The position numbers and the translations under genes were made by a program. Shown here piece after piece: positions 11,840-44,196 of a stretch of 44,198 bases of DNA. Source of the stretch: Escherichia phage vB_EcoS-EE09; sequence record OR756193.1, one strand, 5' to 3'. The first letter of the stretch is position 1, and every line of letters starts with the position of its first letter. The notes beneath the pieces are model-generated. The model was not told the DNA's origin, made no database searches, and saw only the letters and a program-made list of their open reading frames with translations.

Positions 11840-12435
11840 CTTACGAATCCAATAGCAGTCTTAAGGGTGGCGGATACCGTTGCCGTGTAGTGCCCGTTGT
11901 CCGTGTACGACAAGCTCGAACGCTCGACCACGAATAAACCTGTTTCTCCATCCGGCGCGGTGACGACAAACGGCTTGACGAAGTGCCCGCGAAGGAAGTT
12001 ATAAACCAGTTTGGGGTCGCACCACTTATCAGTAGTTAGCCCGACGAATTGCACGGGGAACTGTTTCGTTTCGGCGTTCGGGCCGTCCGCGATGTTCTGT
12101 CCGTAGCCATTACCGAATTGCAATTCCTCGGACCGGAAAGCTAACTGCACGTCGCCACCGCCCTGCAATTGCATGTGCCAGTAATAGGGCCATTCGTTTG
12201 ATCGCGGGTCGTGTGCTTCGATTAGCTCATATGCCGCACCGGATTTCGTTGGACCGGCCCAGTTATCTTTCAGTGTAATGACCGTGTTCGAGTTGAACGA
12301 CGCAATTTTGCCGGTGTAGTCGTTGCCGTCAATGCGGGCAAATACGCGTACCTTCCCGATCTCGCTAAGGAACGCCGTTCCCACGCCCGTAACGGTCTTA
12401 CTCCCCTTAGTTAATGTGATTGTACCTTGTGACAT
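11836..12435 (-). CDS. minor tail protein, lambda M-like
   Basis: Position directly downstream of the tape measure gene; 199 aa. Confidence 0.7.
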   Translation of the reverse strand: MSQGTITLTKGSKTVTGVGTAFLSEIGKVRVFARIDGNDYTGKIASFNSNTVITLKDNWAGPTKSGAAYELIEAHDPRSNEWPYYWHMQLQGGGDVQLAFRSEELQFGNGYGQNIADGPNAETKQFPVQFVGLTTDKWCDPKLVYNFLRGHFVKPFVVTAPDGETGLFVVERSSLSYTDNGHYTATVSATLKTAIGFVR

Positions 12436-12471
12436 AAAAAAGCCCCCACGATGGATGTGAGGGCCATTTTA

Positions 12472-20805: not shown

Positions 20806-20841
20806 TTGCAATCCGCGTATTGGTTGCATATATTGGTTGCA
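20806..20841 (+). promoter_or_regulatory. candidate sigma70-type promoter with tandem ATTGGTTGCA motifs
   Basis: -35-like TTGCAA, 17-nt spacer containing ATTGGTTGCA, -10-like TATATT, then a second ATTGGTTGCA; 17-nt identity ATTGGTTGCACACCAAC with the reverse-strand motif upstream of the gene starting at 31460. Confidence 0.45.
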
Positions 20842-26632: not shown

Positions 26633-26762
26633 GATATAAGCCCTTTTGTGCATATGCGCCGACCATCGGCAACATAGGAGACAGCCCTGCCATCTAAGGG
26701 GGATTATAACAGGCACAAAAAAGCCCACCAAATCGGCAGGCTGGGAGGCTTACGGGTTGCCG

Positions 26763-27905
26763 TTACTTCAACATTTCCGGGCTAATGGTTAAGCGTGCAA
26801 CTTCGCCGTAGTTGGCGCTGTAGGTAATGACGTTGGCACTACGACCTGACATCCATCCGCCACGGCTGGCGTAGGCGTCTTTCGCTGCGAGCGTCCGGTG
26901 CTGTTCAACAATCATGTTGCGGGATTCTACAATCTTCTGGTGGTGCAAGTGGCCTACGTGCGCGTAGCTGTACTCACTGGATCCGAAAGCCTGTCTGAAT
27001 TTAGAAATCATAACCTGCTCGATAGCATCGAATCGCGCTTTGTGCCCGTGGTGGAAGAATAGCGTGGTCTTGCCGTGCTGCACCATTTTGTAGACGTCCG
27101 GGGACGTATCCACATCGACGCGCGGCTCGTTCTCGTACAGAGTATTGAACATCTCAGCCAGCCAAATCATACCCGACTCGTCATGATTTCCCTGGACGAT
27201 TAGCAGTTTTACTTTGTGGTGTTTTTGCAGCGCCAGTTCGACGACGTTGCGCACCATGCGAATCATGTATCGGACCAGTTTCTGGTAGCGGGTGTCGGCG
27301 TCCAGTACGTGACCACTTGCCGGAGTGACAGCGTCGAGGCTATCAAAGTGCGCCATATCACCGAGAATATTAATTACGGCAGTGCCCGCGTCCGGTGCGC
27401 GTGCGAAGGCTTCGACAAACCAGCGGTAAAACAGATCTTCGGCGATTGCCATATCCCAGTCCTCGCCAGTCTCCTCACCCCAGGCCAACATGCCCAGGTG
27501 GAAGTCTGACACGGTGTACAGGTTAAGCAAGTCGAGCGCCTGGATCGGGACTGGCGGGGCTTTCACTGGCGCTGCCGGTGTGATTTCGCTGTTCATACCC
27601 TCGACAACAGCGCGCATGGCTTCAAGCTGGCGCTCCTTGTCCTGCTCAGTGATAACCCACGACATGACCTCTTCGCCATTGCCGCGCACCAGGGCGGATA
27701 CGCGCTTAACGCCAAAGCCATCGGCAACGCGCTTACGGATTACGGCATCGTTACCGTGACCAATCCCTTTCTTCGACAGGCGGGCTTTTCGCATGTAGAC
27801 ATTTCGGAGGGAAAGACCGTATTTCTTCGCAATCTCTTTCGCGGTAGTGCCGGATTGTAATTCAGCAATCAATTGCTCGTCGGTGATTTTAGTTTGCGGG
27901 TGCAT
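26763..27905 (-). CDS. HTH domain fused to a calcineurin-like metallophosphoesterase (380 aa)
   Basis: ORF track trimmed to the ATG with RBS AGGAAGTGG; N-terminal helix-turn-helix-like TAKEIAKKYGLSLRNVYMRKARL; phosphoesterase motifs ILGDMAHF, VQGNHDE, GHLHH. Confidence 0.7.
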   Translation of the reverse strand: MHPQTKITDEQLIAELQSGTTAKEIAKKYGLSLRNVYMRKARLSKKGIGHGNDAVIRKRVADGFGVKRVSALVRGNGEEVMSWVITEQDKERQLEAMRAVVEGMNSEITPAAPVKAPPVPIQALDLLNLYTVSDFHLGMLAWGEETGEDWDMAIAEDLFYRWFVEAFARAPDAGTAVINILGDMAHFDSLDAVTPASGHVLDADTRYQKLVRYMIRMVRNVVELALQKHHKVKLLIVQGNHDESGMIWLAEMFNTLYENEPRVDVDTSPDVYKMVQHGKTTLFFHHGHKARFDAIEQVMISKFRQAFGSSEYSYAHVGHLHHQKIVESRNMIVEQHRTLAAKDAYASRGGWMSGRSANVITYSANYGEVARLTISPEMLK

Positions 27906-27967
27906 ATTAATCCACTTCCTGATTATGGGTCCGAGGACAATATACCACGGTCCCGAGTCAAGCAATA

Positions 27968-27992
27968 AAAAGCCCGGAATTAACCGGGCTTG
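27968..27992 (-). terminator. rho-independent terminator after the Ig-like protein gene
   Basis: AGCCCGG-ttaatt-CCGGGCT hairpin followed by TTTTTATT on the minus strand. Confidence 0.7.
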
Positions 27993-27997
27993 TGGTT

Positions 27998-28411
27998 TTA
28001 TTCTCCTGCTTCCGTTACGGTGAAGATGGCGGACGCCATTGCCCCGCTACCATCGGAGGCCACCCAAAAGATGTGGGCGCTACCTGCCGTTTGGGCTGTG
28101 ATTTCTCCGGTAGTCTGATCGATCGCCGCGCAGGCAGGATTAGACGACACCCACTTCCCTGCCTTGTTAGTCGCGTCTGGTGGCTGGACCGCAACCGAAG
28201 CGGTGGCATTCGCACCAACTGCGGCGGATTCCGGTGTGACAGTTACGGTTGCACTAGTCACCAGCTTACTTTCCGGCGGGCTGGGCAACTTCGCATCGAA
28301 GACCCCCGCATGGCTGATAGTGTCCGCGATGATAGCGCGTGCGCCAGGGTCTTCGGTTTTAGCCAGCGCGGCGAGCGCGTCGGCGTTATGATCAAGAATA
28401 CTTTTTAACAT
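27998..28411 (-). CDS. bacterial Ig-like (Big_2-type) domain protein (137 aa)
   Basis: Beta-rich, Thr/Ala/Val-rich sequence with a W-V-S-S-N-P...A-x-I-D pattern typical of Big_2 folds. Confidence 0.5.
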   Translation of the reverse strand: MLKSILDHNADALAALAKTEDPGARAIIADTISHAGVFDAKLPSPPESKLVTSATVTVTPESAAVGANATASVAVQPPDATNKAGKWVSSNPACAAIDQTTGEITAQTAGSAHIFWVASDGSGAMASAIFTVTEAGE

Positions 28412-28427
28412 ACTGTGTTACCCCGTA

Positions 28428-28919
28428 TTATGCTGCGTTACGTCCGATCTTCTCGGCAACGTCCCACTGCTTACCATCGAATAGCGCCTGCCTGCCGATT
28501 GCTCGACGGACCAGACCCTTAAGCACTTCCCCGCCTTGCTTGCGGAACTGCGGCAGAATAGCACGGACCTTCGCCCAGTCGCCCAGTCGCACCGCATCAT
28601 CGAAATCATTCGCTACGTCATCCGGTACGATCGGACCCGGACCGGCATTGATTACCAGGTCAACCAGCGCGTCGAATTGCGCTTGATTAATGCTCGGATG
28701 TGCGTATTTGTTCACCCAGTCCTCGGCATACGCCACATCGCGCTTGAGTAGCTCCAGCGCTTCCGCACGGGTAATGCTTCGAGGCGGGTTAGTGCCGGTA
28801 TGACCATAACCCCAGGTGTACAGGCCGCGGGCCTGCTCTTTCTTAGTCGCGAAATACGGCACTGGGCTGAAAGTCTCCCATGCTGCCGTAAATCGTAGAC
28901 CGTTGTCACTGAATCGCAT
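28428..28919 (-). CDS. endolysin, phage lysozyme (GH24, P22 gp19-like)
   Basis: Catalytic-region pattern E...Y...T-W-G-Y-G-H-T-G ... N-Q-A-Q-F-D-A-L-V-D-L-V-I-N-A-G; adjacent to holin genes. Confidence 0.8.
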   Translation of the reverse strand: MRFSDNGLRFTAAWETFSPVPYFATKKEQARGLYTWGYGHTGTNPPRSITRAEALELLKRDVAYAEDWVNKYAHPSINQAQFDALVDLVINAGPGPIVPDDVANDFDDAVRLGDWAKVRAILPQFRKQGGEVLKGLVRRAIGRQALFDGKQWDVAEKIGRNAA

Positions 28920-29151
28920 GTTTTACCCCATTCAAAACAGCATTACGCAGCGTGCGCAATGCAAACAGCCAGATTAACGCGGTCCAGGTGGTGTCAGATA
29001 CGTCTCCTGTCTGCAACAATCCGATAACGCAGATCATCGCCGTTAGCAGATATAACACCCGGCCTAAAATGCCATCCTGGACGGACGGCGCATACACGTT
29101 AAACAGGGACGAAGCCCCTATGATAACAAACAACAGGACGGAGATAATCAT
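28906..29151 (-). CDS. holin/antiholin-like small membrane protein (81 aa)
   Basis: Two to three predicted transmembrane segments; start overlaps the upstream stop; directly upstream of the endolysin. Confidence 0.6.
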   Translation of the reverse strand: MIISVLLFVIIGASSLFNVYAPSVQDGILGRVLYLLTAMICVIGLLQTGDVSDTTWTALIWLFALRTLRNAVLNGVKHAIQ

Positions 29152-29438
29152 TTTGCGCCCCCCGGAAGTCGGAACGACTCAATAGTCTCCCTGATCCGGG
29201 CGGCTATTGGCATCCAGAAGATTGCGGTTACGAAGCCCAAACCGGCGACAGTGCGCTCGCCAGATAATCCCGCCCACTCGGCGATAGCTGGCGCACCAAA
29301 TATGGCACACAGGAAGCCAACTACGACATATAAAACGAAGTTCAACGGCCCTTTCGTTGCCTCGCCATGAATGCGTGCGCCTACGAAGCCACCAGCAAGA
29401 CACGCAAGGGCGAATAACCACTCGTTTAGCTTATCCAT
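29148..29438 (-). CDS. holin-like membrane protein (96 aa)
   Basis: Three hydrophobic segments with a charged C-terminus. Confidence 0.6.
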   Translation of the reverse strand: MDKLNEWLFALACLAGGFVGARIHGEATKGPLNFVLYVVVGFLCAIFGAPAIAEWAGLSGERTVAGLGFVTAIFWMPIAARIRETIESFRLPGGAK

Positions 29439-29444
29439 AAAAAA

Positions 29445-29472
29445 GTCCCAGTAAGTTTTAGCTCACTGGGAC
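29445..29472 (-). promoter_or_regulatory. intercistronic stem-loop with T-run abutting the holin-like start codon
   Basis: Perfect 8-bp stem GTCCCAGT/ACTGGGAC with a 12-nt loop; on the minus strand it is followed by T6 and then ATG, with no Shine-Dalgarno sequence. Confidence 0.55.
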
Positions 29473-29476
29473 TATA

Positions 29477-29776
29477 TCACGCTTGCATAATTAATCGAAA
29501 ATGGACCACTTGCCGACGCCTTTCCACTCCCACCCTTCCGATCGGACGGCCTCGAACATCCGGCCCCCAATCATATCCCGATACCACAGACCGGGTCGGG
29601 TGCTCCGTGATTCCACGGCGCTTGTATACCTCGAACGTCATGCGGGTAATACTGGCGGCTTCCACGGCAGGCCATACCAGGAATACCCATATTGCTCCCA
29701 GCACTCCCGTAACCAGGCATAACATGCTGGCCATACCAAACCAATAAATCACATCATGAATCATAATCTGCTCCAT
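29477..29776 (-). CDS. small membrane protein (95-99 aa; alternative start at 29764)
   Basis: ORF track; long hydrophobic segment (YWFGMASMLCLVTGVLGAIWVFLVWPAV). Confidence 0.45.
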   Translation of the reverse strand: MEQIMIHDVIYWFGMASMLCLVTGVLGAIWVFLVWPAVEAASITRMTFEVYKRRGITEHPTRSVVSGYDWGPDVRGRPIGRVGVERRRQVVHFRLIMQA

Positions 29777-29874
29777 AGGTATTTAACCAGACTAATAACC
29801 GACGCCAACAGCACCAGGGCCGCCAGACTACCGCCACATACTACCGCGAAGACGTATAGCATCGAATTGCCCAT
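29761..29874 (-). CDS. possible 37-aa single-pass membrane peptide
   Basis: ATG...TGA ORF MGNSMLYVFAVVCGGSLAALVLLASVISLVKYLWSRL whose stop overlaps a downstream ATG (ATGA); weak RBS; too short for the ORF track. Confidence 0.3.
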   Translation of the reverse strand: MGNSMLYVFAVVCGGSLAALVLLASVISLVKYLWSRL

Positions 29875-29983
29875 TCCGGTTTGCCAATATGGCGCGCCCA
29901 TGCACGCGCCACGAAGTAATTGCGAAATACCCTACCGCCTATCTCGAAGCGGTTATGCTGAAGCATATCACGGATCGTCGCAC

Positions 29984-30556
29984 TCATTTCAGAATCACCG
30001 AGCGCGGGTCAATGGCTTTCATGCTGCCGTCTTGTTCCACCCGGATGAATCCAACGCCATATTCCTGCGCATGGCGCTGTGCATTCGTGACGGCATCAAA
30101 GCGATTGACGATTTCGTGTACGGCACGGCCCATCTTCGCTTGCACCTGGTGGGCGTCGTAGGTTGCGTAGGCGGGCTGCGACTTGCGGAACTCAACGCGC
30201 TCATGCGGCTGGCGGTTGCGCAGGCAGTATTTGCGCCCCACTCGTTCAAAGTGGATTAGCCCAAAGTACGTCATCCCCCTAATCATGTTGCCCGATACGC
30301 CATCCTTGCGGGATTGCATACGCAGGCCATGACGACCGACATACTCGACGACCCACAATTGCCCGTCGCGAATATCACGCAACACATCGCCGCGCTCAAT
30401 ATCGTGTGTGAGGACTTCGAAGAACTGCGGCAATGTGCCCTTCGATGCGCGGAATACCCGATCGCTTGCCGCGTGGTGCAAGCGGACGTAGGAATCCAGG
30501 GTCTGGATCGGCTTCAGTATGCGACCGTCTGATTTGCGGCGGAATAGTAATCTCAT
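29984..30556 (-). CDS. hypothetical protein (190 aa)
   Basis: ORF track; start overlaps the stop of a 50-aa upstream ORF (ATGA); no motif recognised. Confidence 0.55.
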   Translation of the reverse strand: MRLLFRRKSDGRILKPIQTLDSYVRLHHAASDRVFRASKGTLPQFFEVLTHDIERGDVLRDIRDGQLWVVEYVGRHGLRMQSRKDGVSGNMIRGMTYFGLIHFERVGRKYCLRNRQPHERVEFRKSQPAYATYDAHQVQAKMGRAVHEIVNRFDAVTNAQRHAQEYGVGFIRVEQDGSMKAIDPRSVILK

Positions 30557-30705
30557 TGCTCAGTCTCCTCAATCTCGTCAACAGTCTTATAGTCGCCATC
30601 GCATACCGTAGCGATGCCGTCCATCTCATAATCAGCTATGCAGGCGTCTACTGAAATAAACTTCTGCGAGAATCCCGTCATTAGTGCTCTTTGCATTGGT
30701 GTCAT
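30553..30705 (-). CDS. possible small acidic protein (50 aa)
   Basis: ORF MTPMQRALMTGFSQKFISVDACIADYEMDGIATVCDGDYKTVDEIEETEQ bridging two overlapping-stop/start junctions; too short for the ORF track. Confidence 0.35.
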   Translation of the reverse strand: MTPMQRALMTGFSQKFISVDACIADYEMDGIATVCDGDYKTVDEIEETEQ

Positions 30706-30971
30706 TTGCTCAGTCTCCAGTGTTTTCCTACCCGCTCAACGGCGGGCTTCCGGCGTAATGTAATACGAATCCCCATTGGTTGCAAGGAAGTCCGCACCCT
30801 GAAATCGTGTTGTGCTGCGAACTGGTGTAAGTAGCGAGTCTGCGTCAACGGCTTTACGTCGTCGCGATAGCACCAGAATACCGATTCGCCCTCAACTGCA
30901 TTCTCAGCCCATATTCGTATGCAATGCAGGGGAATATGCCACGAAAGCTGTTTTGCTCGTCTACGTCCCAT
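30702..30971 (-). CDS. hypothetical protein (89 aa)
   Basis: ORF track; RBS AAGGGG upstream of ATG. Confidence 0.5.
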   Translation of the reverse strand: MGRRRAKQLSWHIPLHCIRIWAENAVEGESVFWCYRDDVKPLTQTRYLHQFAAQHDFRVRTSLQPMGIRITLRRKPAVERVGKHWRLSK

Positions 30972-30980
30972 TTTGGCCCC

Positions 30981-31460
30981 TTATTTCGCAAGCTGGGCGA
31001 ATAACTCACGCTGGGCTTTAATCCTGGCGACGTTTGTCACTGCCTTCTCGCCAATACCGAAGCGATAAGCCAGGCGCTCACGGGAGAATGCCAGCGCGTA
31101 TTCATGGATTGCCTTACGCAGCGGACCCAGGTCATCCATGCTGGCGTCCATATCGTCTAGCGCACACATGATTGACTGGTGTGCCAGTGTCGCAAACTGG
31201 CGCGCACGGTCTACGTTGCCGTTCAGCGCCTTCGCTTCGTTCAGCTTTGCCAGGGCCAGTGAGTAATTCCAGATTAGTGCTCTCATTGTTCGGTCCTTCT
31301 TAGTGTTGTCGTCAACAATCGAGGCTTTTCCGGAATTAACACGAATCATCACATCGTCCAGGGTAGACATGCAAGTCGCCCCGCTTTCATAGGTGCCCTG
31401 GTCGTTGCTGGTGAAGGTGATAGTTGATTTACCGTCTTTGATGGTTACTGGAAATTTCAT
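30981..31460 (-). CDS. hypothetical protein (159 aa)
   Basis: ORF track; RBS GAGAGGA upstream of ATG; preceded on its strand by two ATTGGTTGCA motifs. Confidence 0.55.
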   Translation of the reverse strand: MKFPVTIKDGKSTITFTSNDQGTYESGATCMSTLDDVMIRVNSGKASIVDDNTKKDRTMRALIWNYSLALAKLNEAKALNGNVDRARQFATLAHQSIMCALDDMDASMDDLGPLRKAIHEYALAFSRERLAYRFGIGEKAVTNVARIKAQRELFAQLAK

Positions 31461-31479
31461 TTTGTTTGGTCCTCTCGTT

Positions 31480-31530
31480 GGTGTGCAACCAATCTAGCAG
31501 GGTGCCAGGCTGAATGCAACCAATATTAAT
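31480..31530 (-). promoter_or_regulatory. promoter-like region with two ATTGGTTGCA motifs (reverse strand)
   Basis: Two exact copies about 31 bp apart, 25-55 bp upstream of the start at 31460; the proximal copy extends to ATTGGTTGCACACCAAC, identical to the motif at 20832. Confidence 0.45.
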
Positions 31531-31669
31531 CATGCGTATGAAAAAGTTGATCGCTATCTGCTGTGGCTGCAAACTGCATTTTTCACTCAGCATAATACAA
31601 CCCGCATTGGTTGCCTAGTTCATCCGCGACCGCACTTCGCATCATGCTGCCGTGTATTTTGCAATCCCC

Positions 31670-31800
31670 GGATTTTATTCAGTCTCAGACGAGGGGGGCC
31701 GTTGACCCCCGTCTAGTCTGAAAGACTGGGGTGCTGTCCCGCTTTGTCCCGCCTAGTGTTTGTCCCGCTTTTTGTCCCGTTTGGTTTATGCAATAAAACT
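31670..31800. repeat. second copy of the hairpin plus GTCCCGC-array element
   Basis: TTATTCAGTCTCAGACGAGGGGGGCCGTTGACCCCCGTCTAGTCTGAAAGACTGG...GTCCCGCTTTGTCCCGCC...GTTTGGTTTATGCA matches the copy at about 15095-15285 apart from a roughly 50-bp internal deletion and a few substitutions. Confidence 0.7.
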
Positions 31801-31829
31801 GCATAACTATTCATCTCATCTACACTACA

Positions 31830-31930
31830 CGGCAACCAATACGACCAGATAAAAACACGCAAAATGGCAACCAATACGCGCACAAATTAATCGTCTAGCG
31901 ATATGGGAATTCCCATATCGGCAACCAATG
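31830..31930. repeat. three iteron-like GGCAACCAAT(A/G)CG repeats plus a 22-bp perfect palindrome
   Basis: Direct repeats cGGCAACCAATACGa, tGGCAACCAATACGc, cGGCAACCAATGCGc; palindrome CGATATGGGAATTCCCATATCG at about 31899-31920; AT-rich flank; directly 3' of the primase-helicase gene. Confidence 0.6.
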
Positions 31931-31940
31931 CGCGCAAAAT

Positions 31941-34282
31941 TTAATCTTTCAGGTCATCATCGGTCGCCGAAAGCGTGATGGGTATATTTGTTTTGATGAC
32001 GATATTCGACGACCCATAGATGGCCCCGGTGTGCGGATCTGTATAAAAACCTAGCACGCCGCGATCCACCATATCGTCTATTGCCTTCGTCGATGTGCCA
32101 CCTTTTGCCAATCCCGCCTGGCGGACGATTGCCGATTTACTGAATCCGGTATGGTCCGGGTTATCTTCCATCAGTTTTTCCAGTGCCGCATAAAGCACTT
32201 TCTCTTTTTCGTTGCGCGGCCCCGCGGCATTTTCTTCCTTAACTGCGGCTTTGCCAGCGGCCTTTGCCTGCTCAATAGCGAACGGTGCCAGGGCGACCGG
32301 TACGAGATACAGAGTCTCGTCGCGTGGCGTGGACGCGATCGGCTTGACGTCCCAACCGGCAACCACATCGCCGAAGTCAGGCCCGGTGCTGGTGGACTGG
32401 TGCGATTCGAACGCCTCGGACTTGCGGAGATCCACCTTAACCTTGCACTTGAGCAGGACGAATCCGCGCGGCGCTTGCTTGATGCCGTTACGTGCCTTTT
32501 CGTGATACAGGTTCAATTGGCCTGGTTGATTGTCGTCCGGTTGCTCCAGGAAGAACGCAGAATCAACAGCACCATGCAGCGCGCCGGACCCGCGTGGGGA
32601 TCTGCTGCCGTTTGCACCCTTCGCCGGGTGGTGGATGACGCCCGCACTGCCGCCTGTATTTTCCGCGATGGCCTTCAGCGCCTTGACCACTTCGCCCATA
32701 TCGCTGGCGTTGTTCTCGTCGAACGGTTTAGCATCGGCGGACCGCAGCGCAACAGTCTGGTTGAGTGAGTCGAACGCCACCAGGCCAACCGGTTCGCCGT
32801 TAGCGGTGCGGTTGATAAAGCTGATAACTTCACGCAAGCCGGATTTGCTGGTGATATCCCAGCCGCGAGATTGCAGGTCGATAATGTGCAGCTTGTCCAG
32901 GTCGTGCTCATATTTGATCTGCAATGCTTCCTTACGCTGGTTGGAGGCTTCGCCACCTTCCGCGTCGAAATAGAAGCAATGAGACTGGACGACCTTCGCA
33001 CCACCGAACGGGATCCCCGCGGCAACCGCACCCATTTGGCCCAGCACGTAGAACGATTTACCGATGTTCGATTCGCCAGCCATATACCAGGTCGATTTGA
33101 AGTTGACCAGGCCTTCTATGATCGGGTCGTGCTTACTGAACAGTGCGACCGGTTCGTTATCCAGGTCAGCGTCGGTACATACGCCGTACTCGTCGCCGTC
33201 TCCGACCGCATCAACGATATGCGCATAGCACGATTCCACTTCCTCGTCGTCCAGTCCTGGGAGGATGGCGGCGATTTGCTTACGTGACATGTTGTGCGGT
33301 TCGACGTTCAGGTGGTCCGGGATCCCGATAAGACGTAGCGCCAGGTGCTGGTGTCTGTTCAGTTCCGAGCAACACTCGTTGCCGGTGTGCATACACTTGA
33401 AACGGATCTCGCCATCCTTAACCATGATAGCGGTGGACCCTTCGCCGCTGTGCAGGTGTTCGTTCGGGCATGGCACTTCATAACCACGACCGGACGACAG
33501 CGGTTCGAATCCTGCCTGGAAGCACCAGTCCAGAATTCCGTCCGTTACGCCAGCGTCGCCCTGGGTCAGTTCGCGGCGCACTTCCTCTTTTTCCACTCCC
33601 CGCTTATCAGCCAGGCGGAGCAGACGACGGACGCGGGCGCGCTTGCCATAGTGGCACTTAATAACAGACTGCTGGTGTGGCAGGTACATCAGGCGGTTTG
33701 TGTCTTTCGTGCAGTCGTCGAAGTCCACATCGGACAAACCAAGTTGGTGTAATAGCGCATACTGGACGCGGCCCAGGTCTTCCGCCGGTACAGGCTTGTC
33801 GGTCAACACCAGGAAACGGGCGCAACGCGTGGCGCATACTGGACGCGGCCCAGGTCTTCCGCCGGTACAGGCTTGTCGGTCAACACCAGGAAACGGGCGC
33901 AACGCGTGCCGCCTTTCAGCGGGTGGCGGTCGCCGGTTGTGGTGTGAAATACGTGTTCCAGCCCCGCGTCAATGAACGCCTTACGGCAGCGGCGTAGGGT
34001 GCGGGTGTCGGTACGGTCGATATCAAAGAACAGGATCGAGCGGTCCACCGCACTGGTCTTACGACGCAATCCGTCACTGGTATACGCCACGATGCCATCG
34101 GCCTTACGCTTGCGGCGCGCATACTCGGCTTTATCTTCCGTCTTATTGATATGCACCGAGGAGATTTCTTTCGCATCATTGATAAATTCGAAAAATTCAT
34201 CGGTGGTCATCTGGAAGTTTTCCGCCCTGGCTTTTTCGCCTTTTTTAGCGGGTCTTGTTACAGCGAATTTAATTAAGCTCAT
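31941..34282 (-). pseudogene. DNA primase-helicase (AEP/PrimPol-like N-domain plus P-loop NTPase), frame broken by a 77-bp tandem duplication
   Basis: N-terminal ORF (33803-34282) has the AEP motif LFFDIDR and a conserved His; the C-terminal ORF (31941-33902) has a Cys/His cluster and Walker A GESNIGKS; both contain TRCARFLVLTDKPVPAEDLGRVQYA; removing one 77-bp copy gives a single 2265-nt (754-codon) frame. Confidence 0.7.
33755..33908. repeat. perfect 77-bp tandem direct duplication (two copies)
   Basis: 33755-33831 is identical to 33832-33908 (GCGCATACTGGACGCGGCCCAGGTCTTCCGCCGGTACAGGCTTGTCGGTCAACACCAGGAAACGGGCGCAACGCGTG). Confidence 0.9.
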
Positions 34283-37697: not shown

Positions 37698-37787
37698 CCG
37701 CTTAGGCGCAACCAAGTAGATTAGCAACCAAGCCGAACGGGGTGGCTTCCAATAACCCCGATACATGTGAAAATGAGGAATTGGAAA

Positions 37788-44169: not shown

Positions 44170-44196
44170 ATTGGTTGCATAATTAGATTGGTTGCA
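44170..44196 (+). promoter_or_regulatory. tandem ATTGGTTGCA motifs at the right edge of the window
   Basis: Two exact copies 17 bp apart immediately after the stop of the last gene, same tandem arrangement as at 20819-20841. Confidence 0.5.

Follow-up and report, generated by a model that had tools for sequence, protein, structure and literature searches.

In phage lambda, the holin gene S is preceded by a terminator that lies ~190 nucleotides (nt) downstream of its promoter and is overcome by Q, and the initiation region of S (sdi) is structured, as is that of T4 gene 25. McPheeters et al. are said to have described, in 1986, gating of T4 gene e by a hairpin. In the T4 genes e, soc and I-TevI, a helix conceals the ribosome site of early read-through RNA, and the RNA made from late promoters begins inside that helix (PMC3014915). 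Here we describe a hairpin that immediately precedes the start codon of a holin-family gene in Escherichia phage vB_EcoS-EE09 (EE09; OR756193.1). The window analyzed (44,198 nt) is approximately the complete genome of this HK578-like siphophage, a member of Dhillonvirus, and the whole analysis is computational.

On balance, we think it probable from the sequence comparisons that this conserved hairpin is a gate that insulates the lysis cassette, both by termination of transcription and by burial of the Shine-Dalgarno (SD) sequence of the holin gene, with a probable extended -10 promoter overlapping it. The structure and its conservation, compensatory changes, terminator-type features, a cassette flanked by terminators, the conservation and recurrence of a promoter-like motif, and the lack of a competing fold are established. 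From the sequence we infer actual termination, the identity of the promoter with a start in the region of G29464, and occlusion of translation. The features at the junction are as follows.

29471-29481, minus strand: extended -10-like motif CGTGATATAGT (TGnTATAGT), which overlaps the first 3 nt of the 5' arm of the hairpin
29444-29473, minus strand: hairpin of 12 base pairs (bp), AGTCCCAGTGAG-CTAAAA-CTTACTGGGACT, in the form of an intrinsic terminator
29439-29444, minus strand: T6 run, the terminator U-tract and also the spacer between the SD-like arm and the ATG
29148-29438, minus strand: gene for the 96-amino-acid (aa) holin-family protein, with its ATG at 29438 (phrog_2359, E = 6e-32)

As in T4 gene e, a lysis gene is preceded by a stable stem that holds its SD (in EE09 the weak, SD-like GGGA), a promoter-like element (here a candidate) lies over the DNA of the 5' strand, so that the RNA begun there would be without that strand, and the purpose would be the same, the blocking of premature lysis-gene expression from upstream transcription. 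Unlike in T4, the gated gene is the holin rather than the endolysin, the candidate promoter is of the host sigma-70 extended -10 type rather than a gp55 late promoter (TATAAATA), the AUG lies outside the stem, and the arrangement is known from sequence alone. The EE09 stem is also followed by a U-tract, and because of this it should terminate as well as occlude. With lambda pR'-tR'-S, the locus has in common an intrinsic terminator just before the holin gene, where the lysis/late genes begin. In EE09, however, the terminator directly adjoins the start codon, the stem and the candidate promoter overlap, and no Q-like protein was found at the locus, where the 190-aa neighbor was searched. As with lambda sdi, RNA structure at the holin initiation region is predicted to tune synthesis, but the EE09 structure lies upstream of a single start, does not span two starts, and has a terminator U-tract. 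Ordinary Rho-independent terminators, such as those of the phages CS16 and Scapp, likewise have a GC-rich stem, a short loop and a U-tract, and are intergenic, on the coding strand and at the flanks of cassettes. The EE09 element differs from these in that there is no separate ribosome-binding site (RBS) spacer, the U-tract runs into the ATG, and the 3' arm is the residual SD. The element is of an ordinary class, in a neat and compact arrangement.

Structure and strength of the hairpin

A sequence-only reading of this locus had reported a perfect 8-bp stem-loop, followed by T6 and then directly by ATG. The hairpin is real, but we identified 12 pairs (six G-C and one G-U) around a 6-nt loop, CTAAAA, at positions 29473-29444. 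The T6 run and the adjoining ATG were described correctly, and the first T is able to pair with A29473. The free energy of the hairpin (dG) is -19.3 kcal/mol, the pair probabilities of the stem are 0.94-1.0 in a 196-nt context, and the fold of the leader has z = -5.2 (0 of 200 dinucleotide shuffles fold as well). The hairpin is strong and is more than chance. G-U pairs in such a stem are compatible with the sense strand only.

All of the sequence features of an intrinsic terminator are present: a GC-containing stem (within the ~5-14 bp usual for the class), a short loop (within 3-8 nt) and a U-tract directly 3'. In a terminator scan of positions 27500-32500 the holin hairpin ranked first and had the longest stem (12 pairs), and in three scans over 1-40000 its stem was the longest among the strong, high-GC entries. 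In CS16 (LR999870.1), this same hairpin is among the 18 terminators that the depositors annotated independently. An Rfam scan of 29000-30100 returned only a sub-threshold match to NsiR1 (RF02399; 29.3 bits, gathering score 39), which is a generic resemblance between terminator hairpins.

No competing fold that replaces the hairpin was found in the 196-nt context, where forcing the 3' arm to be unpaired shifts the minimum free energy from -73.6 to -56.4 kcal/mol. A classical attenuator was rejected, as there is no alternative pairing and opening of the 3' arm costs ~17 kcal/mol. Thus, where a terminator or an attenuator had been proposed, the former is upheld by its sequence features, its conservation, the CS16 annotation and its position at the edge of the cassette, and the latter is left without the alternative fold that it needs.

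Conservation within Dhillonvirus

EE09 is 88-91% identical at this locus to many Dhillonvirus genomes. Column statistics were computed for 17 distinct Dhillonvirus sequences, and variation was surveyed in 44 Dhillonvirus loci. In the former, 49 of the 52 columns of the 52-nt intergenic spacer are invariant. The mean pairwise difference is 0.017 in the spacer, compared with 0.16-0.19 at third codon positions of the flanking genes, so that the spacer is about 10 times as constrained as the flanking synonymous sites. Both stem arms and ~25 nt before the stem are unchanged across all 44 loci. The sites that vary are two loop positions, the length of the T-run (T6, T7 or A+T6 in every locus) and an AT stretch just after the stop codon of the upstream gene. 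In a divergent lineage (holin 71% identical) the arms are GTCCCC/GGGGC, a compensated change that keeps the stem. Judged by these alignments, the hairpin is under strong purifying selection.

Homologous elements in other phages

A hairpin, ATCCTCCAG...CTGGAGGAT, occupies the homologous position in Kagunavirus (K1G, RP180 and ~70 contigs; holin 46% identical), and is followed by TTCATC and then by a TTG start that aligns with the Dhillonvirus ATG. Beyond a shared CCAG/CTGG, four stacked pairs differ from those of Dhillonvirus on both strands and are still paired. Natural variants have a G-U pair or a stem of 13 or more bp, and the z-scores of the hairpin are -3.0 and -4.2. The arms are separated by 14-22 nt, versus 6 nt in Dhillonvirus. 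The Kagunavirus element of ~65 nt is fully intergenic and near-invariant, while the sequence just upstream splits into unrelated variants; thus, the element belongs to the lysis cassette and not to the preceding gene. The K1G gene upstream of the holin is unrelated to the 95-aa protein encoded upstream of the holin in Dhillonvirus.

More distant relatives of the holin that share the leader geometry were identified in Pantoea phage MED16 and Serratia phage Scapp; in both, a strong terminator stands apart from the leader, 50-60 nt ahead of the holin. The depositors of Scapp (MH553517.1) annotated the order terminator, holin, holin, endolysin, terminator, TerS, and the RBS that they annotated, GGGG, is the 3' arm of a predicted stem that is itself within chance. 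Strong leader hairpins are found in the lineages that lack a separate terminator, and weak ones in those that have it, which argues for the strong hairpin as the source of terminator or insulator function. A comparable element is absent from the homologous locus of Pectobacterium phage Wc4-1. Scans of metagenomes and IMG/VR with the holin profile gave only the same genera, and for this reason the independent lineages are few: Dhillonvirus (two sub-lineages), Kagunavirus, the MED16 type and Scapp.

Translation start of the holin gene

Ahead of the holin ATG, the strongest anti-SD pairing is that of GGGA (-3.9 kcal/mol), whereas the corresponding duplexes of uncoupled neighboring genes, at -5.6 to -9.4 kcal/mol, are all stronger. 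GGGA comprises the only SD-like bases of the gene and lies inside the 3' arm of the hairpin. The earlier statement that the gene lacks an SD was roughly right, but on this evidence it becomes a weak SD that is buried in the stem. In Kagunavirus, the 3' arm CTGGAGGAT is a perfect SD, fully in the stem and 6 nt from the TTG start. Because that arm is homologous, the Dhillonvirus 3' arm CTGGGAC is best read as a degenerate (decayed) SD that is occluded by the stem. Folding predicts an open initiation region for an RNA that starts at G29464. A proposal of unusual translation initiation at this gene needs rewording to occlusion of a weak SD by the stem, in a layout that recurs at 12465-12433. A dual start of the lambda S type was ruled out, as the protein begins MDKLNEW and has no second Met or nearby alternative start.

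Candidate overlapping promoter

Directly 5' of the stem, CGTGATATAGT forms a TG-n-TATAGT extended -10 motif, three bases of which overlap the 5' arm. Its counterparts are CGTG(G/C)TATCCT in Kagunavirus and TGCTATCGT in MED16. TG.TAT..T is invariant in 117 loci of the two genera, with A, G or C at 'n', and in four lineages 13-15 nt separate the hexamer from an ACTTA that they share. It is the lysis cassette, rather than the upstream gene, that the element accompanies. Exact copies of CGTGNTATA occur only twice in the window, at 29481 and 27949. Both are intergenic, on the minus strand, and beside the two terminators that flank the lysis cassette. The copy at 27949 follows the terminator that closes the cassette and is ~34 nt upstream of the start of a phosphoesterase-family gene; in relatives, alignment shows that this site is CCCGTGATATATTGTCC, close to GCGTGATATAGTCCC. 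A further sequence, CCTGTTATAAT at 26713, comes after the next terminator.

A sigma-70 start is predicted ~7 nt past the hexamer, at G29464/A29463, which is inside the 5' arm, and RNA from ~G29464 lacks 9-10 of the 12 nt of that arm. Based on the motif, CGTGATATAGT is likely an overlapping promoter of the host sigma-70 extended -10 type. A separate promoter for the holin had been named as a finding that would speak against a gating hairpin; this may in part apply, given the conserved -10-like motif that extends into the 5' arm. When 14-mers of the element were searched, at up to 2 mismatches, for a recurring phage-specific promoter word, only the GGG(A/G)CTTTTTTATG junction at 12446 matched.

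Lysis cassette and upstream genes

Every gene at the hairpin locus is encoded on the minus strand. In addition to those given above, the features are:

30556-29984, minus strand: 190-aa open reading frame (ORF) (EE09_46; phrog_10243)
29987-29841, minus strand: 48-aa ORF downstream of the 190-aa ORF
29761-29862, minus strand: 33-aa accessory ORF with a single transmembrane (TM) segment, within a 98-nt insertion
29764/29776-29477, minus strand: 95/99-aa protein with an N-terminal TM segment (phrog_2531)
28906-29151, minus strand: 81-aa second holin-family protein (phrog_2508, E = 1e-26)
28428-28919, minus strand: endolysin (phage lysozyme; PF00959, E = 3e-20; phrog_7)
27998-28411, minus strand: 137-aa Ig-domain ORF (Big_2 domain), the final gene of the cassette
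27970-27991, not assigned to one strand: bidirectional terminator-like hairpin that ends the lysis cassette, from the terminator scan
27939-27949, minus strand: second CGTGnTATA extended -10-like motif CGTGGTATATT, from the alignment of relatives

The cassette therefore reads, on the minus strand, hairpin, holin, holin, endolysin, Ig-domain ORF and terminator. The closing terminator (27991-27970) is annotated as such in CS16 and is kept in relatives. Beyond it are the phosphoesterase-family gene and then terminase and structural genes. A further terminator-then-promoter junction (26703-26742, minus strand) lies after the phosphoesterase-family gene and before the small terminase gene, where a terminator-like hairpin (26742-26722) leads directly into a perfect extended -10, TGTTATAAT (26711-26703).

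Both holin-family proteins are predicted from small size, hydrophobic stretches (holins of this kind have 2-3 TM segments), phrog profile matches and an adjacent PF00959 endolysin; the 96-aa protein has three hydrophobic stretches by hydropathy. The 81-aa gene overlaps the 96-aa gene by ATGA and has a strong SD, GGGGGG, and its overlap with the endolysin gene is 14 nt. The N-terminal 47 aa of the 137-aa ORF match the 'lysozyme downstream ORF' family and are fused to a Big_2 Ig-like domain. In relatives, the 'lysozyme downstream ORF' is short (~55 aa, phrog_11068); the EE09 version is a 137-aa fusion inside the lysis cassette.

The spanins are encoded elsewhere. Kongari et al. list an overlapped spanin pair for HK578 and JL1, and we identified an i-spanin/o-spanin pair of the 'Jersey' family at ~22084-21761 (minus strand), 7 kb from the holin-endolysin cassette, after the head genes and just before a terminator at 21653-21635. 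A tblastn alignment to the HK578 i-spanin has a stop codon near the C-terminus. The 95-aa membrane protein was considered as an i-spanin and rejected, because the pair of Kongari et al. maps to 22084-21761; it also has no homologue adjoining the Kagunavirus holin.

The sequence-only reading placed four small, hydrophobic, translationally coupled ORFs of 37, about 95, 96 and 81 aa ahead of the endolysin. All are hydrophobic by hydropathy, and the lengths of 96 and 81 aa are right. However, the 37-aa ORF is really of 33 aa, as the proposed start, ATG 29874, is AGG in GeorgBuechner (the BASEL phage Bas16) and the annotated, conserved start is ATG 29862. This ORF lies in the 98-nt insertion that, among the aligned genomes, is found only in EE09 and GeorgBuechner and is missing from five others. 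The 33-aa ORF (MLYVFAVVCGG...) takes over the start codon that serves the 95-aa gene where the insertion is absent. The 95-aa ORF is frameshifted: a 14-nt deletion at ~29590 (TGCGCATGTGGTGG in relatives) alters the last ~37 residues and moves the stop from the family TAA, 52 nt before the holin ATG, to a TGA at 29479-29477, 3 nt before the stem. The deletion is not shared by any of the 132 fetched loci or by the best database matches, and in EE09 it could couple translation of the upstream ORF to unfolding of the hairpin. Coupling by overlap holds for most neighbors (ATGA for the 190-aa/48-aa, 33-aa/95-aa and 96-aa/81-aa pairs, and 14 nt for the 81-aa gene and endolysin) but not across the hairpin. 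Nor is the membrane cluster one conserved module, as it is just the holin pair and the endolysin that stay together from genus to genus.

The 190-aa protein belongs to phrog_10243 and has 446 close homologues, none below 72% identity among the matches listed. Its AlphaFold model has a beta-rich N-terminal half (pLDDT 80-88) with a weak resemblance to tandem SH3/KOW-like barrels (Spt5, kin17 and the RapA N-terminus); the C-terminal half is unmodelled. As a Q-like antiterminator this protein found no support in Pfam, NCBIfam, PDB sequence or Foldseek searches.

A second hairpin-ATG junction and other repeats

A similar junction was identified at a tail gene:

12433-12465, minus strand: hairpin GGCCCTCAC...GTGGGGGCT, T5 and ATG 12435 of the minor-tail gene, in the same layout as the holin junction

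It follows the tape-measure stop codons TGATAA (12471 side), and consists of a G-rich 3' arm, GTGGGGGCT (GGGGG), as the SD, a TTTTT spacer and ATG 12435. Since the layout is the same, a T-run into the start codon is not unique to the holin. The junction is kept in CS16 with a different loop, and the CS16 depositors start the minor-tail gene upstream of the hairpin instead. This T-run hairpin probably just lowers expression of the downstream minor-tail gene.

The 8-mer TTGGTTGC occurs 19 times on the two strands, versus 1.7 expected, and 0 of 100 shuffles reach 19. Sites are at 1894-1913, 4970, 10434, 20820-20840, 30776, 31485-31928 (six copies), 34813, 37708-37731, 41213 and 44171-44195. Many copies are in or near intergenic gaps, often paired 12-16 nt apart or palindromic (TGCAACCAA..TTGGTTGCA), and in relatives the 8-mer flanks a canonical TTGACT/-10 promoter after the lysis-cassette terminator. 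It resembles an operator or iteron for a regulator encoded by the phage, or else an origin element. Beside the cluster of six, in a 480-nt non-coding gap after the helicase gene, are four tandem-like copies of (GC)GGGACA(A) (31733-31779, minus strand), which may be an origin or regulatory array. A 19-mer, CTCGTCTGAGACTGAATAA, is found at ~31693-31673 and ~15118-15098 (minus strand), and the former copy is preceded by an inverted repeat rich in G/C. The pair may represent a structured element that is repeated and lacks a T-run.

Proposed mechanism and alternatives

In the reading that we favor, the 12-bp stem and U6 would stop most polymerases that arrive from the upstream replication-side genes before they reach the holin. 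On RNA that is read through, both the weak SD and the greater part of the ribosome landing site would be buried in the stable stem, and holin translation would be poor. Productive holin mRNA would probably be made from CGTGATATAGT, acting as an extended -10 promoter for host sigma-70 that lies partly over the 5' arm. RNA begun at ~G29464 would neither terminate nor occlude the ribosome site, because most of the 5' arm is lacking. The logic would be that of the T4 lysozyme gene e, here fused with a terminator. We hold more tentatively to a stronger version, in which the 30-nt hairpin may be a three-way switch operated with host RNA polymerase only, which terminates, hides the holin ribosome site and is bypassed by the embedded promoter. 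This version includes a variant in EE09 only, where the stop codon is 3 nt before the stem: ribosomes that end the upstream ORF would melt the hairpin, coupling the holin to that ORF.

Several observations weigh against a hairpin gate with an overlapping promoter. The candidate promoter has no -35 element, and a generic promoter scan did not report the motif. TGnTAnnnT occurs 25 times on the minus strand, and where it precedes three other terminator hairpins it simply consists of stop codons (TGATAA or GTAATA). With 1 mismatch allowed, neither TGNTATAGT nor CGTGNTATA is significantly enriched over the genome. An unregulated sigma-70 promoter before the holin would need some other source of timing. 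The holin AUG is 6 nt outside the stem. The Kagunavirus U-tract is poor (UUCAUCUU only), and therefore termination may not be the conserved function; the leader stems of MED16 and Scapp are weak and within chance (z = -1.3 and -0.5). In the literature, no RNA 3'-end, 5'-end, RNA-seq, Term-seq, in vitro or expression data were found for Dhillonvirus or Kagunavirus. KBNP1315 is an unrelated podophage.

The hairpin could instead be a plain intrinsic terminator that ends a replication-side unit of small genes, with lysis genes expressed by read-through, TGATATAGT not a promoter, and the holin translated from a weak SD with a U-rich, S1-friendly spacer. We consider this rather unlikely, although it accounts for the full set of terminator features and the CS16 annotation, and is in keeping with the many intergenic terminators along the late strand. 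In addition, the minor-tail gene has the same G-rich arm, T-run and ATG with no promoter needed there, and the TGnTA motifs ahead of other terminators are by-products of stop codons. However, a plain terminator leaves unexplained the invariance of ~25 nt upstream of the stem (GCAAGCGTGATAT), the retention of TG.TAT..T in Kagunavirus with a free 'n', the movement of the element with the lysis cassette, and the stem that the Kagunavirus homologue retains without a good U-tract. Furthermore, a stem of -19 kcal/mol would cover the ribosome landing site on read-through RNA. Another alternative is a purely translational operator, much like the initiation regions of lambda S (sdi) or T4 gene 25 with their RNA structure, in which the hairpin occludes the holin RBS and keeps synthesis low or delayed, there is no useful termination, and the T-run is only a spacer. 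Dhillonvirus and Kagunavirus have in common a 3' arm that contains the SD and lies 6-7 nt from the start codon, rather than a U-tract, and the stem is stable (that of Scapp is comparable but statistically unsupported). Yet in Dhillonvirus the SD has decayed to GGGA, the stem has grown to 12 bp and T6-T7 is strictly kept, which points to selection for termination, and the lineages with weak stems carry a separate terminator. We therefore regard an operator of this kind as improbable.

Lambda-like late control, in which a phage antiterminator lets RNA polymerase pass the terminators, is less probable again. The 190-aa protein, encoded two to three genes upstream, would be the candidate: there are many terminators along the late strand to be passed, the protein has its weak fold resemblance to the KOW/SH3-like barrels of Spt5 and RapA, and the position of its gene resembles that of Q upstream of pR'-tR'-S. 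However, the protein has no Pfam, NCBIfam or PDB sequence match. The confident part of its model is beta-rich, whereas solved Q proteins are reported to be mainly helical, and all Foldseek matches are at E >= 0.02 and to a generic fold. CS16 has no annotated gene of ~190 aa between helicase and holin (by length and synteny; not checked by sequence search), and the upstream genes of Kagunavirus differ. We give the least credence of all to a DNA-level palindromic operator, for a dimeric repressor that overlaps the holin promoter, in place of an RNA structure. The inverted repeat does adjoin a promoter-like motif, and palindromic half-sites would also co-vary. But the arm spacing changes from 6 nt in Dhillonvirus to 14-22 nt in Kagunavirus, the G-T wobble positions pair on the sense strand only, the T-run is conserved, and the half-site does not recur elsewhere.

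Implications

The ingredients of the gate are known from lambda (the terminator before S) and from T4 (gene e). What is modestly new is their compaction into one hairpin that abuts the ATG and is kept across two phage genera. As a terminator alone, the hairpin would be an ordinary finding, yet the gene models upstream of the holin in EE09 have been corrected. Should the overlapping promoter be real, the element would provide a natural "terminator plus promoter plus RBS gate" part in very compact form.

When a phage lyses its host is a key component of its fitness, and is set by the time and amount of holin synthesis. The latent period published for EE09 is 20 min at a multiplicity of infection (MOI) of 0.001 and 25 min at an MOI of 5 (PMC10673088). 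Dhillonvirus and Kagunavirus are large groups of common coliphages that are represented in the BASEL collection and in therapeutic cocktails. For these phages the hairpin offers a candidate control point of the lysis cassette that is small, well delimited and highly conserved. The switch module, kept with compensated arms in Dhillonvirus and Kagunavirus and in looser form in Scapp and MED16, would set the timing and the amount of holin.

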